This document shows positions 1 through 56,902 of a stretch of DNA of 64,000 nucleotides, in pieces. How positions within the stretch are numbered: position 1 is the first letter of the stretch; every line of letters starts with the position of its first letter. The translations under genes were made by a program, and so were the position numbers. The notes below the pieces were generated by a model. That model searched no databases and was not told the origin of the DNA. It saw only the letters and a program-made list of their open reading frames with translations. Source of the stretch: an uncultured Planctomycetaceae bacterium (GTDB taxonomy: Bacteria; Planctomycetota; Planctomycetia; Planctomycetales; Planctomycetaceae); NCBI GenBank assembly GCA_963815195.1, contig CAWFGE010000022.1, positions 128,001 to 192,000 on the forward strand, read 5' to 3'.

Positions 1-1100
1 CAGCGGCGCGAGAGTTCCCCCGGATGTCCCGCTTCCCAGCGAAACCGACCACGAAATAAACTTCATCGAACACAAGAACAAAATGGCTGAGATGGTGAGC
101 CGATTGGACAATATGTTGCTGATGTTGTAGTAACCGACGCCCAAGGTGTCCGGGGCCAGGTATCCGACGACGCCGACGACCACGGCCCCCAATGCCGGCC
201 ACCACATCCAATGGATCGGAAGTTTTTCAAAGCCGTCTTCAATGGCATAGACGACCTTCGTGACGACGACCGAAATCAATCCCATCACTCCGCCAAGGCA
301 AATATAAGTGGCCAAGGCGGTCCCCGTTGGCTGCTGAAGATTCGTCATGGCGAAGACGGGTTCCATGCCTTCAAACATCATCCGAATTCCGGTCGCGGTC
401 GAGGCGGCGAGCGCGACGGGAATAATGGAACGCGGGCGGAACTCGAACAGCAACAACTCAATCGCCAGAAGGACGGCCGAAACCGGGCTTCCGAATGTCG
501 CCGCCATCCCGGCAGCCGCCCCGGCCGCCAGCAGAGTTCGCCGCTCGCCAACGGTCGTCCGAATCGACTGGCCGAACACCGACCCCAAAGCCCCGCCCGT
601 CGCAATGATGGGCCCTTCCGCGCCAAACGGTCCGCCCGTTCCGATGGAAAGCGCCGATGAAACGGGCTTCAAGAAGGTCACCCGGGCCGGGATCCGGCTC
701 TCGTTCGTCAGGATTTGCTCCATCGCTTCGGGAATCCCGTGTCCGCGGATGGCGCTGGAACCGAACCGAGCCATCAGACCGACCACAATCGCGCCCAGGA
801 TGGGAATCGGGATCGACCACAACCCCAGGCGTGGAATCGCGTCGGCCGGCACCGAACCGCCAATGACAGTTCACCGAAATAAGCGAGATTCGTGATGACG
901 GCAATCAATGCCAACAGGACTTGAGCCACAAAAGCCGCGGCGACTCCCAAAAAGATCGTCAAAACGCAAATCAGCAAGACGCGCCGATCGATGAGGGAAT
1001 AATGGGGCGGAACCTGGGCTGCCTCGGCCACCAAATCCAGCGAAGGTGATACCGTCAATCCATCCGATGTGGCGGACTTCGCGGGTTCCCGCTCCGTCAT
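1..1100 (-). CDS. CLC-family chloride channel/antiporter (partial, runs off window; frameshifted)
   Basis: Stitching minus-strand frames gives GHGIPE, GGPFGAEGP and GSGTSGG CLC motifs and many TM segments; frame breaks near 860 and 570. Confidence 0.85.
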
Positions 1101-1303
1101 CTCGACTCCGATAAAAAAATTGTGTCGGCGGGGCAATTGGGAACCACCGTTTTCCTCACCCGGTCAATTGTAGCGAGCCCGCACCGGGGCGGCAAAGTGC
1201 TTGGAATCGGGGTTCAGGCGGGAATGTCAAAAAGCCCGCCGGGGAAGAAGCGAATCTTCCCACGCGGGCGTCGGACGGTGATTGGTTTTAGAGACTGCTC
1301 GAA

Positions 1304-2260
1304 TTAGAACTCCCCCAAGACTTCGCCGCCCGCGCGGCTGCCCAGGGCGTGCCAGGTGGGGAGGTTGATGTTCTCGCCGACGAAGCGGACGCTGCCGTCG
1401 CATAGCAGCACCTGAACGCCGCCCGTGTGTTGGCTGCGGGCGGCGGTGAGGGCGTAGTTGTGGTAGGCGTTTCCGCAATCGGGAAGGCGGGAATTGGGGC
1501 TGTAGTAATGGTTGTAAAGCGCATCGCCGTAGTGCCCGTTGATCCATTTCGCCCCGCGCACGCCCGGTCCAATTTCCTCCGCCGGAGGCCGCCGCCGCAC
1601 AGGCGCTGGGCGTCGTGGCCGAGCCGCCGCTGAGTTCGTAAACCTCTTTTTGGGGATCGATTCCGATCGCCGGGTTGGCTCCGCTGCCGAGCAAAGTTTC
1701 GCTGAAGCAGACGGTGTTCGAGGTGCCGTCGGTGATGTCGCGGAAACGGATCGACGAGGCGGAAAAGAAAATCCCGTCCGCATCGACCATCGTGCCGTTG
1801 TTGACCTGGCCGCTTCCCGTGGACGCCACATAGTTCGTGGGGCCGTAGGTGTTTCCCGGGATTTGATCCGAGTCGCTGGGGCAGAGGTAAATCTTCAAGG
1901 ACAATTTCGCGGCGGCCTGATCGGTTCCCGATCCGAACGCCAAGGGCGGCACGCTGAAGTTGATGAGCTTCTGAAGGGCCGCCTGATCCATGTACGGAAG
2001 CAGATGAGCCTGGGGCGAGAAGACCATCGGAAAGTTGAGCCGGGCCGGGGGAACACGCGCAGGCTGGATTCGTAATTGTGCATGGCCAGCCCGATTTGTT
2101 TGAGGTTGTTTTTGCACTGGAGCCGGCGGGCGGCTTCGCGGGCTTGCTGGACGGCGGGCAATAACAGGGCGATCAAAATCGCGATGATGGCGATGACCAC
2201 CAAGAGTTCAATCAATGTGAAACCGCGCGCACGCCCAGCGCACGTGAATGCAAACATCAT
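1304..2260 (-). CDS. DUF1559 prepilin-type N-terminal / H-X9-DG protein (frameshifted)
   Basis: [34 protein letters not shown]...[15 protein letters not shown], then ITDGTSNT and [12 protein letters not shown] in successive frames. Confidence 0.9.
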
Positions 2261-2346
2261 GGGGGAAACTCCAAGGCTTGTGATTCCGAATAAGCGCAGG
2301 GCCGCTCGGAGCGGAACGCGTCCGCCGGCCGCGCATCAAGAGGCAC

Positions 2347-3013
2347 TTACGCGGCGGGCGTTTTTGGAGGAGGAGTTTCCGGGAGGCGGGACGGATTGGA
2401 AAACCGCCGGCCGGTTTCGCTGAGCGATGTCGGCCAAACGTGCCCGCTTCGCAGTTGAGCCGTCTCGGCGATCAAACGCGGATCGGCATTTAAGGCCGTT
2501 TGGCTTTGCGGCCCGCCGTCACATCCGCACGCCTTCACGCGGAGCAGGACGGAACGAGAGCGTTCGTGGGAGTTCGAAAGACTTCCGGCAACAAGAGCCG
2601 CCCGCCTTGCATGCGGACGGCACGCAGTTCGTGCGGACGATGGCGTCGGATGGCTGGGTCCGTTGGGTCACGCAGCAGCTTTTGACGTGGCTTTTCTTCG
2701 AGCAGCACGAGGACGGGGAACCCTTCTTGCAGCCGCTTTTCGGAGCGTCTTCTTCCCCAAGAGCAAGCTCCCGATGGCAGCAACACTGGCCGGCGGCTTT
2801 TCGCTCTTCGCTGCATCGGCAACCGGCGGGGGTCGGGTTTCCTCCCATCGGCAAGCCGACCGTGGCGCAGAGATAGGCCGCCAACGTTGCCAGGCTGCAC
2901 AGGCAACGCCTGGAGGGAAACCAGGAAGACCATCGGGAAGAAAACACGGTTCGCCGCTCAACGATTGGAACAGGGCTTTCCCTCATGCTATCGCAAGATG
3001 GGAAGGCAAACAA
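2347..3013 (-). CDS. Cys-rich hypothetical protein with Pro-rich C-terminus (one frameshift ~2540)
   Basis: ORF 2519-3013 (CRC, CCC, SCC clusters after a hydrophobic segment) continues into ORF 2347-2538 (CGC...NADPRL...PETPPPK). Confidence 0.6.
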
Positions 3014-55079: not shown

Positions 55080-55108
55080 GCGGTGTGCCTGTCAGCCAGT
55101 ACTTCAAT

Positions 55109-55222
55109 TGCCCCAACGGGGCAAAACAAAGCCAGCCTGGGGCGAAGCAACGCGGCGACAGCCGTAAGCGGAGCCCCAGGTTCGTGACGGGAAACCAATC
55201 TAGGCCCTGAAGGGGCCAGACA
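55109..55222. repeat. REP-like composite palindrome
   Basis: GCCCCAACGGGGC, CCTGGGGC...GCCCCAGG, GGCCCTGAAGGGGCC; related GCCCCGTTGGGGC near 27905. Confidence 0.6.
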
Positions 55223-55226
55223 AATC

Positions 55227-55852
55227 CTAGGGTTGATTTTGAGGCTGGATTGCCGTCGATTCTGTCGAATCGATGTTTCCCTCATCGACGAACATATCGA
55301 TTTTCAAATAAGGTTCCCCGGATTCAGGATCGCAGGGCAATTTTGTCGAGGCAAGCTGGAGCAAGTTCAATTGATTGAAGAGAACTTCATTAAACGTTTT
55401 GACGACGCCCCGCGCAATCGATTCATCATTTTCCGCCAATTCCGCCATGCGGCAAAGTTCGCGATGAATCGCAAAGGCGTGAGACTTGATGCGATCCAAA
55501 CCGGTGAGACCTCGATTCGAAAATCCCACGTGCAAGTCCCGATCCATCGCCCGCGCGTAGGCTTCCAATTCGCTGATTCGCAGCTCGCCGTCCTCGCCGT
55601 TCTCGATCTTGGACACTCGGCTCTGCGAACAATCGAGTTGTTCCGCGATCTCCGCTTGGGAAATCCCCTTCGCCGCGCGCAACGCATGCAAAGCCTTCAC
55701 CAGCCGCGCTTCGAAATTTGTTCTTCGAGTGCCCGGTTGAAAGCCTCATCGTCCGAGATGTCGCGAATCATCTCCCGAACCGAGTTGTACTGCGGATTTT
55801 CAGAAATTGAGTTGTCGGCCGCGGTAATCTGACCGCGGAAACGTTGAGCCAT
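55227..55852 (-). CDS. XRE-family HTH protein, HigA-like antitoxin (frameshift ~55705)
   Basis: LRAAKGISQAEIAEQLDCSQSRVSKIENG; N-terminal part MAQRFRGQITAADN...YNSVREMIRD lies in the adjacent frame. Confidence 0.8.
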
Positions 55853-56106
55853 TGCGATTCTCCTGTGACCCGGAGCGGGTGCTTCAATGGGGCCGCGGTC
55901 ATTCAACCGCGGAAAGTTGCAGTCGTTAAGGCCCTGCACAGCCTTTGTCTTGAGATCCAACCGTCAACCACCAATCCAACACTTGGTGGTTGGTCGTTAT
56001 GAGCTTCAACCGGCCGTGGTCATTCAACCGCGGAAACAATTTTGTGGATGCCGAAGCTCTTCATGGCATCCTGTTCAATGGGGCCGCGGTTTTTGGATAA
56101 GAAAAG
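55807..56106 (-). CRISPR. degenerate cas-less CRISPR-like mini-array (4 repeats, 3 spacers)
   Basis: + strand repeats: 55807-55842 (partial, GGCCGCGGTAATCTGACCGCGGAAAC), 55881-55916 GCTTCAATGGGGCCGCGGTCATTCAACCGCGGAAAG, 56003-56037, 56072-56106 (partial, TTCAATGGGGCCGCGGT); spacers 38, 86 and 34 nt; minus strand gives a hairpin plus 3' ATTGAAGC. Confidence 0.75.
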
Positions 56107-56121: not shown

Positions 56122-56517
56122 TTATTCTTCCAACGACTCATCCGATTTTTCCTGCACTTCGGAAGCTTTCTCCGCTAACAAGGAATCGACAAAGTGTTTA
56201 CAGAATCGGATGTCGTCGGATTGGCTGTTTTTGTCGCCCAACGTGATCAAATGCAAAGTTTCTGATTCCTCGTCCGGATAAATGTAGAGCCGGAATTCTT
56301 TAAGGTGGGATCCTTTTCCCTTTTGGTCGATCGCCAAAACCCCAGACGGTTCGGGATGAATAAATCCTCGGTGGATTTGCCCGGAGGACGCGCCGGCCTC
56401 GAGGCATTTGAAAAATGTGTCCAAGTTGTCAAAAACATTCTGCAACTCGCGAGAATGTTTCTTCTGGTGCTTTTTCACCCGTTTTTCAATATCGGGCGTG
56501 GGCGACAACTTCCACAT
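56122..56517 (-). CDS. RelE/HigB-like toxin (addiction-module killer type)
   Basis: 131 aa, basic N-terminus, RLYIY...LITLGDKNSQSDDI; upstream of the XRE gene. Confidence 0.65.
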   Translation of the reverse strand: MWKLSPTPDIEKRVKKHQKKHSRELQNVFDNLDTFFKCLEAGASSGQIHRGFIHPEPSGVLAIDQKGKGSHLKEFRLYIYPDEESETLHLITLGDKNSQSDDIRFCKHFVDSLLAEKASEVQEKSDESLEE

Positions 56518-56520
56518 GGG

Positions 56521-56549
56521 ATTATATCATAGAGGAATAGTTTCGGCAA
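56521..56549 (-). promoter_or_regulatory. putative sigma70 promoter of the toxin operon
   Basis: TTGCCG-17 nt-TATAAT with overlapping TATGAT just before the ATG; no RBS, possibly leaderless. Confidence 0.5.
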
Positions 56550-56655
56550 TAAAAACACCGAAATCTCCAAAGATTATTCTTTTTTGGAATATGTTGTCAA
56601 TGACTGATGGATTGTAATAATCCCCGAAGAACCCATCTCAGCAGGAATATCTGCC

Positions 56656-56902
56656 ATGTCCAAGCCAACCTTCCCGCGGCGTTTTTCAACCGTAGCGGAT
56701 TTTGAACTGCTGACAGGCGGCCGGTCCTTCGATGTGGTCCAGGTTGCCCCTGAAATTCATAATCCTTAAAACTCCCCAAGAGATTGCCCCCGGCGATGCG
56801 GAACTCATCATCCGTGTTGAAGATGAGGTGATTCATCGGCAGATTGCTCTGCCAAATGGATCAACCCCAACAATGCGCCGAGTCCCCATCCAACGTTATT
56901 AA
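56656..56902 (+). CDS. small hypothetical protein (frameshift ~56753), absent from the ORF track
   Basis: GCAGGA RBS; MSKPTFPRRFSTVADFELLTGGRSFDVVQVAPE / FIILKTPQEIAPGDAELIIRVEDEVIHRQIALPNG...*. Confidence 0.55.

Follow-up and report, generated by a model that had tools for sequence, protein, structure and literature searches.

How can an antitoxin still be made when its original start codon appears to be gone, and could a spacer of a CRISPR array take over the start of translation? This question is raised by a locus in a 64,000-nucleotide (nt) stretch of DNA (hereafter the window; positions 128,001 to 192,000 of contig CAWFGE010000022.1, assembly GCA_963815195.1) from an uncultured Planctomycetaceae bacterium (genome G000), in which the relic of a CRISPR array lies between the two genes of a toxin-antitoxin (TA) pair. 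On the minus strand the order is toxin gene, half repeat R0, spacer S1, repeat R1, a stretch of 86 nt, repeat R2, the last spacer, the degenerate terminal repeat R3 and a helix-turn-helix (HTH) antitoxin gene. From the sequence comparisons described below we favour, with modest confidence, the reading that the last spacer now acts as the translation start of the antitoxin.

The last spacer (55843..55880, 38 nt) reads ACCCGCTCCGGGTCACAGGAGAATCGCAATGGCTCAAC on the minus strand (55880-55843) and contains AGGAGA (55864-55859), followed after 6 nt by an ATG (55852-55850). The frame opened by this ATG (MAQRFRGQITAADNSISENPQYNSVREMIRD... / MAQRFRGQITAADNSISENPQYNSVREM...) continues without a stop through R3 (55842-55807), the codons of which are read as RFRGQITAADNS, and enters the antitoxin gene. 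This arrangement had been pointed out in a first-pass annotation of the window, the coordinates of which proved exact. As assembled, the N-terminal frame of the antitoxin comprises 51 codons followed by a TGA (55697..55852, minus strand) and includes an internal ATG at 55771-55769. The 3' end of the 16S rRNA (...CACCTCCTTTCT) carries CCTCC, which matches the Shine-Dalgarno (SD) sequence of the spacer. Of 200,000 38-mers drawn at random from this genome, 266 (0.13%) carried an AGGAG-N5-9-ATG motif, as did 0 of the 388 orientations of spacers in the other arrays of G000. With the demand that the ATG be in frame, which adds a further factor of ~3, the arrangement is expected by chance in ~4 in 10,000 cases, a figure that has to be read with the fact that the hypothesis was formed after the motif had been seen.

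No target that would mark the last spacer as a guide was detected in the genome itself, in 90-odd related loci or in phages and plasmids, since no match was significant (all E at least 0.1); the comparison with phages and plasmids had been proposed in the same annotation. Viral contigs contained no exact 27-mer match to the spacer, and the repeat was not found in them either. A search for longer proteins with the first 51 residues of the antitoxin gave no match.

Among related loci, the array relic was found only in G000 and in a congener (G256). The G256 locus is homologous to window positions 55282-55845 with 88.7% nucleotide identity, terminal repeat included, and is syntenic with the window on the agmatine-deiminase side. 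In G256, the terminal repeat GTTTCCGCGATCAATCGACCGCGGCCGAGGATCCT is directly followed by ATG CCT AAA ACT CCG CAG TAC (MPKTPQYASV), and at the same columns, without insertions or deletions (indels), the window reads ATT TCT GAA AAT CCG CAG TAC. The first of these codons, an ATT at 55805..55807 on the minus strand, corresponds to ATG in G256 and to M in the closest homologues, and the three closest metagenomic homologues begin at this position with MT(K/E/D)N.QY.SV. Ahead of it the window reads CGACAACTCA as against CGAGGATCCT in G256, where a GAGGA is present. Because G256 and the closest homologues start at this position, the ancestral start codon and its SD sequence appear to have been lost, as assembled, in the lineage of the window. 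For the DNA of the closest homologues (P0002-P0004 and P0021), scans of metagenomes and genomes gave loci of at most 62% identity.

The part of the antitoxin that carries the XRE/HigA-like HTH and a C-terminal helical domain is assembled as a 157-aa open reading frame (ORF; 55227..55700, minus strand). The antitoxin matches the Pfam families HTH_3 (6.7e-12) and HTH_37 (2e-5), its family profile matches M. tuberculosis HigA3 (2e-8) and HigA2 (3e-7) in the PDB, and full-length homologues have ~200 aa. The toxin (131 aa; 56122..56517, minus strand) gave only a weak match to TIGR02683 (E 0.035), and no Pfam match was obtained for any of 29 members of its family, nor did the family profile match the PDB. 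An AlphaFold2 model of the toxin, built from 29 homologues, reached a predicted local distance difference test (pLDDT) value of 93.3 and showed a fold of the RelE/YafQ/HigB type with a C-terminal helix. Its top Foldseek matches were YafQ (E 7e-4), HigB2, RelE and YoeB, with a probability of ~1.0 and target-normalised template-modelling (TM) scores of 0.5-0.7, so that on the strength of the model the toxin is confidently predicted to have a RelE-superfamily fold. All of the 8 invariant columns of the family are kept in it.

A toxin homologue lies directly 5' of the HTH relative, on the same strand, in 35 of 38 distinct loci, as counted after dropping four duplicates; the remaining three are G256 and two loci that a contig end truncates. 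Between the end of the toxin alignment and the HTH core a median of 160 nt (range 77-301) was measured, compared with 425 nt in the window. This conserved, tight adjacency and the wide gap in the window indicate that the CRISPR relic is an insertion into an operon that is normally tight. Sequence and models together predict that the gene pair is a higBA-like, toxin-first type II TA system with the corresponding activity. As in higBA (HigB2-HigA2, and HigA2/HigA3 of M. tuberculosis), a gene for a RelE-fold toxin stands 5' of one for an XRE-HTH antitoxin; the locus differs by the ~300 nt of CRISPR relic between the genes, by a toxin family that has no Pfam model and by the extra C-terminal domain of ~60-70 residues in the antitoxin.

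Two sigma-70-like promoter matches are located 5' of the toxin gene (56521..56600, minus strand), namely TTGACA-16-AATAAT at 56600-56573 and TTGCCG-17-TATAAT at 56549-56521. They are consensus matches only, and 4 promoter-like sites were observed where 1.1 were expected from shuffled sequences; they are presumed to form the operon promoter. No promoter-like site was found within the array region in the consensus scan. The better matching -10 element, TATAAT (56526-56521), is placed 3 nt 5' of the toxin ATG (56517). This ATG is not preceded by an SD sequence, in contrast to the ATG of the spacer with its strong SD sequence, and the toxin mRNA may be leaderless or weakly initiating.

A different account of the locus is that of a decaying pseudo-operon, in which the start codon was lost, the frameshift is real, the SD sequence and ATG of the spacer are coincidental and nothing functional is made. 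The assembly does hold two lesions: it has ATT in place of the ancestral start codon, and at 55705..55706 it lacks 1 nt that homologues have. Homologues continue in frame there (...EEQISKRRLVKAL...), whereas the window reads ...EEQISKRGW and then a stop, with the HTH part in a different frame; one added base gives ...KRRLVKAL.... The frameshift at ~55705 reported in the first-pass annotation is thus present in the assembly. Further, within the genus the module behaves as an accessory, unstable element: of four genomes, two have the HTH gene and one has the toxin gene, and neither gene is present in the two genomes other than G000 and G256. G256 has lost the toxin and carries a kinase-like ORF in its place, with only two partial repeats upstream, and R0 and R1 of the window have decayed.

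Other observations speak against such decay. When G000 and G256 are compared, the ratio of nonsynonymous to synonymous substitution rates (dN/dS) is 0.20 overall and, for 145 codons from the HTH and C-terminal part, 0.16, at a dS of ~0.35. By this measure purifying selection acts on the antitoxin gene, although a gene that had died only very recently would escape the measure. The reading frame is restored in an independent contig from metagenome run X1 (record 2, 151 nt), which equals 55596-55745 plus one base behind 55705 and so restores KRRLVKAL. Further genes in the genome are split by apparent indels as well (alpha-amylase and HsdR on contig C7, Cas1 on C3 and the small plus-strand ORF at 56656-56902 of the window). 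These split genes and the X1 contig lead us to read the 55705 frameshift as, quite probably, an assembly indel. A real frameshift in a dead gene, named in the annotation as an outcome that would overturn the idea of a spacer-borne start, agrees with the assembly but is weakened by this contig, which is identical over 150 nt and carries the missing base. The toxin has an intact ORF that keeps every invariant residue, and no second copy of either the toxin or the antitoxin gene was found in the genome. With an intact toxin the antitoxin should be needed, and a dead one should be harmful. Together with the low chance of an in-frame SD sequence and ATG calculated above, these points make a pseudo-operon a rather improbable account.

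The loss of the ancestral start, the selection on the gene, the intact toxin, the canonical SD sequence and the lack of a target are the reasons why the last spacer is regarded as an initiation site rather than a guide. The corresponding claim of the first-pass annotation, that the spacer is an initiation cassette and not a guide, finds support in the comparison as far as the lost ATG and SD sequence, selection and the missing target are concerned, and its remaining part, actual use of the start, is considered probable. An N-terminal extension is compatible with what is seen in the family. The tails in front of the [FY]xSV motif range from ~5 to ~27 residues, and in an AlphaFold2 model of the G256 antitoxin residues 1-9 form a coil and helix 1 begins at the near-invariant V10; the same model contains the extra C-terminal helical domain (~60-70 residues). 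Since the N-terminal tails are variable and form a coil, the extension by 15 residues is predicted to be harmless and should be tolerated.

Several observations weigh against a start in the spacer. The hairpin of R3 (-13.8 kcal/mol) begins at +15 from the spacer ATG and could hinder initiation, and a database homologue, P0002, is annotated from the internal Met. Read-through from the toxin promoter over three hairpins has to be assumed, there being nothing promoter-like in the relic. The region 55752-55843, which includes the ATT and the terminal repeat, and most of the array are uncovered by metagenome contigs, so the ATT is known from the assembly alone and, given an error-prone assembly, is itself uncertain. 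The frame-restoring X1 contig has a depth of 3 and possibly derives from the same sample. The arrangement is known from two genomes only, the last spacers of which cannot be aligned with each other, and the sequence case as a whole rests on one assembly and one congener. Over R3 and the start codon, 11 of 38 positions differ between G000 and G256. A hint of constraint on the R3 hairpin comes from the stems with their 4-nt flanks, where 1/20 positions differ compared with 10/18 in loop and tail (p = 0.0009), but with the stems alone the numbers are 1/12 and 10/26 elsewhere (p = 0.12), so that the apparent conservation depends on the grouping.

The hairpin, the annotation of P0002 and the uncovered ATT would fit a start of the antitoxin elsewhere, be it at the ATT (as a rare start codon or a miscalled ATG), at ATG 55771 inside the gene or, should the frameshift be real, by termination-reinitiation at GTG 55700. 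The last of these opens the 157-aa antitoxin ORF and overlaps the TGA of the upstream frame (GTGA). The spacer ATG would then be irrelevant or give rise to a minor isoform. Each of these starts has drawbacks, however. The ATT is without a preceding SD sequence, unlike the ATG of G256, and the assembly errors that were seen are indels and not substitutions, the comparison with metagenome contigs having revealed no substitutions over the covered parts. GGGAG directly abuts the internal ATG with zero spacing, and initiation there would delete V10 and the beginning of helix 1. A start at the GTG would drop the first 20 positions of the HTH_37 profile. We therefore consider a start elsewhere unlikely and retain the spacer ATG as the favoured start.

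The relic belongs to a family of 36-nt repeats. The repeat GTTTCCGCGGTTGAATGACCGCGGCCCCATTGAAGC builds two arrays elsewhere in G000, one with 5 copies on contig C7 (38896-39260) and one with 6 copies on contig C15 (142180-142640). R2 (55881..55916, minus strand) is canonical but for its first base (C for G) and has an intact hairpin (-13.5 kcal/mol); it was rightly called an intact repeat in the first-pass annotation, as it agrees with the array repeat of the genome in 35/36 bases. This exact 35-nt match is expected 0 times by chance. In Rfam, R2 matches CRISPR-DR16 at 21.7 bits, which is under the gathering threshold. R3 (55807..55842, minus strand) lies one spacer length 3' of R2 and matches the array repeat in 22/26 positions over its first 26 nt. 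Its CCGCGG/CCGCGG stem is kept and its hairpin is as stable as that of R2, whereas loop and 3' tail have diverged.

Further upstream, R1 (56003..56037, 35 nt, minus strand) is mutated, with CCACGG for CCGCGG in the 3' arm and a changed 3' tail. It has 1 mismatch in a core of 20 nt; the canonical hairpin is lost and its fold is no better than that of shuffled sequences (z -0.78). R0 (56073..56090, minus strand), at the 5' edge of the relic, consists of the 18-nt 3' half of the repeat (ACCGCGGCCCCATTGAAC), and its leader side is formed by the 3' end of the toxin gene. The distance from R2 to R3 is 74 nt, which is the normal period, while R1 and R2 are 121 nt apart and R0 is a half repeat only. 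Spacer S1 (56038..56072, 35 nt, minus strand) had no above-chance match in the genome or in related loci. It contains a 7-bp inverted repeat, GGATGCC...GGCATCC (56044-56071, minus strand), that forms an extra hairpin between the toxin and antitoxin genes. The 86 nt between R1 and R2 (55917..56002, minus strand) exceed one spacer length. They were tried as a decayed repeat and rejected, as the local alignment was not above the null expectation (100/500 shuffles reached at least the same score). A 10-bp stem-loop (CAACCACCAA...TTGGTGGTTG) is present in this stretch at 55970-55997 (minus strand). Tandem Repeats Finder did not call an array at the relic. In a fold of the whole region as RNA, mainly different repeats paired with each other, and this fold was set aside.

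The repeat was searched in 398 genomes of the family. Contig C329 of genome G257 encodes Csb2 (E 1e-123), the Cas5-Cas6 fusion protein of type I-G CRISPR-associated (Cas) systems, with near-identical repeats directly downstream (2-3 mismatches in 32), and one further genome (G130) contained one similar repeat copy only. In the G257 repeats the stem reads CCGCAG/CTGCGG, a compensatory change that supports the hairpin. Because a near-identical repeat adjoins Csb2 in G257, the repeat family of the relic is assigned by sequence to type I-G (I-U).

In the first-pass annotation a regulatory role had been given to the repeats. Cleavage at R2 by a Cas6-type enzyme would free an antitoxin mRNA with a CRISPR RNA (crRNA)-like 5' end, and cleavage or protein binding at R3 would sever the start codon from the gene, so that antitoxin output would depend on CRISPR-Cas. 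Three findings would suit such a switch: the repeat family is of type I-G and processed by Csb2 in relatives such as G257, R2 and R3 keep stable hairpins, and two Cas6 genes are present in the genome. These Cas6 genes, however, are part of two loci, one of type I-B and one of type III, and the repeats of both differ in sequence from that of the relic without sign of a relationship. Csb2 was not found in G000 with two models, TIGR02165 and PDLC01778, nor in G256 with PDLC01778, which does detect Csb2 in G257. Cas models gave no match to the 54 ORFs of 100 aa or more in the window, and none of the ORFs scanned within ~10-20 kb of the C7 and C15 arrays was a cas gene. Moreover, R3 is without the 3' tail in which cleavage would fall and the hairpin of R1 is lost. 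The G000 assembly is 94.6% complete and a missing locus is thus possible; as far as this assembly goes, all three arrays with the relic repeat are orphans. The cleavage logic found no support in these results, and we regard such a switch as highly improbable. As cognate Csb2 and other components were not found in the genome, the relic is most likely just transcribed with the operon.

The two sister arrays also bear on how the relic may have arrived. At the 5' edge of the C7 and C15 arrays, as at that of the relic (56073-56090), only the 3' half of a repeat is present, with a normal spacer after it, and G256 likewise has two such partial repeats. IS21 and serine-recombinase genes are found near the C7 and C15 arrays. 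The truncated half repeats, these neighbouring genes and the failure to find cas genes nearby suggest, at the level of sequence, that the repeat hairpin is where array fragments break or move. Compared with such orphan type I-G arrays, the relic shares the 36-nt repeat of C7 and C15, which is nearly that of G257, and the degenerate terminal repeat; it differs in its sense orientation within an operon and in being partly protein-coding.

The history that we favour from these results is as follows. A fragment of a type I-G array would have come to lie in the short gap between the two genes of a higBA-like operon in an ancestor of G000 and G256, such that the terminal repeat of the relic ended ~9 nt ahead of the original start codon of the antitoxin. 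From the promoter upstream of the toxin, the relic would simply be transcribed as one stretch of the operon mRNA. In the lineage of the window, the ATG of the original start would have changed to ATT, and the SD sequence in front of it would have decayed as well. Antitoxin translation would now begin 45 nt upstream, at the spacer ATG with its AGGAGA 6 nt before, and the ribosome would go on through what remains of the spacer and through all of the degenerate repeat, the hairpin of which it would unwind. By this, 15 residues (MAQRFRGQITAADNS) would be added to a naturally flexible N-terminal tail. In this history we infer transcription across the relic, use of the spacer ATG and the activities of toxin and antitoxin.

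Degenerate mini-arrays that are tied to TA pairs have been described before. CreTA is an RNA-RNA pair located inside cas operons, in which CreA requires Cas6 and Cascade and has a spacer that pairs with the toxin promoter. Divergent repeats flank CreA (PMC10120712, PMC12737573). The locus in the window resembles CreTA and cr-like mini-arrays in the physical link between a degenerate mini-array and a TA pair. It differs in that both partners are proteins, that no Cas gene was found in the window and that Csb2 was not found in the genome. A CreA-like partial target near the locus was not detected, the best spacer matches (12-17 nt) being located elsewhere in the genome at chance level. A CreTA module was ruled out by the lack of a cas operon and of a promoter-matching spacer and by the protein nature of both partners.

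In Clostridioides difficile, type I TA modules are co-located with CRISPR arrays. These are modules with RNA antitoxins beside arrays, whereas here the array lies inside the operon of a protein TA pair, and we know of no spacer-supplied start codon at the C. difficile loci. In the full texts searched, neither an array within a type II TA operon nor a start codon supplied by a spacer was found to be described.

The layout would also allow a closer tie in the past, in which it once linked a type I-G CRISPR-Cas system to the protein TA pair and processing by Csb2 uncoupled the expression of toxin and antitoxin. We give this very little credence. If it were true, the TA pair would have sensed or enforced the Cas machinery and would be a protein-based counterpart of CreTA; after loss of type I-G, G256 would have escaped by losing the toxin and G000 by a restart of antitoxin translation at a ribosome-binding site carried by a spacer.

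If the spacer ATG is used, the locus would represent a natural co-option of a CRISPR spacer and repeat as ribosome-binding site, start codon and coding sequence, and a clear example of start-codon turnover. The relic shows that fragments of arrays are able to land within operons and to last through a speciation event. It also offers a simple test bed for the effect of a stable repeat hairpin at +15 on initiation and for the action of Cas6-type enzymes on host mRNAs.

In addition to the loci discussed so far, G000 contains a type I-B locus on contig C18, a type III locus on contig C14 and an I-E-like array, also on C14, the repeats of which are unrelated to that of the relic. The type I-B (MYXAN-like) locus (C18:1-16000) encodes a fused Cas4-Cas1 and has long arrays that are broken at contig ends; array pieces are also found at the contig ends of C1 and C3. 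The type III locus (C14:85000-103400) comprises a reverse transcriptase, Cas1, Cas2, Cas6, two CARF effectors (CARF-RelE-like and CARF-Lon) and an array of 42-50 repeats. The I-E-like array (C14:28738-29403) is cas-less.

On the far side of the toxin gene, homology to the window stops at ~56635-56638 in both G256 and a further congener, G307, just 5' of the promoter matches. G307 has a kinase-like gene and no array at the site. The kinase-like ORF (~154-180 aa) is located at 2299-2763 (minus strand) of locus L016 in G256 and at 1036-1559 (minus strand) of locus L125 in G307; in both genomes it seems to carry a frameshift close to the 3' end. On the plus strand of the window, at 56656-56902, a small conserved ORF that has 103 aa in G256 is split into two frames. 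Finally, a short GC hairpin followed by AATTGAAGT (GCCCCGTTGGGGCAATTGAAGT) lies 3' of the antitoxin gene (55101-55122, minus strand). This AATTGAAGT hairpin resembles the 3' handle motif of CRISPR repeats and could be due to chance or be a further relic.

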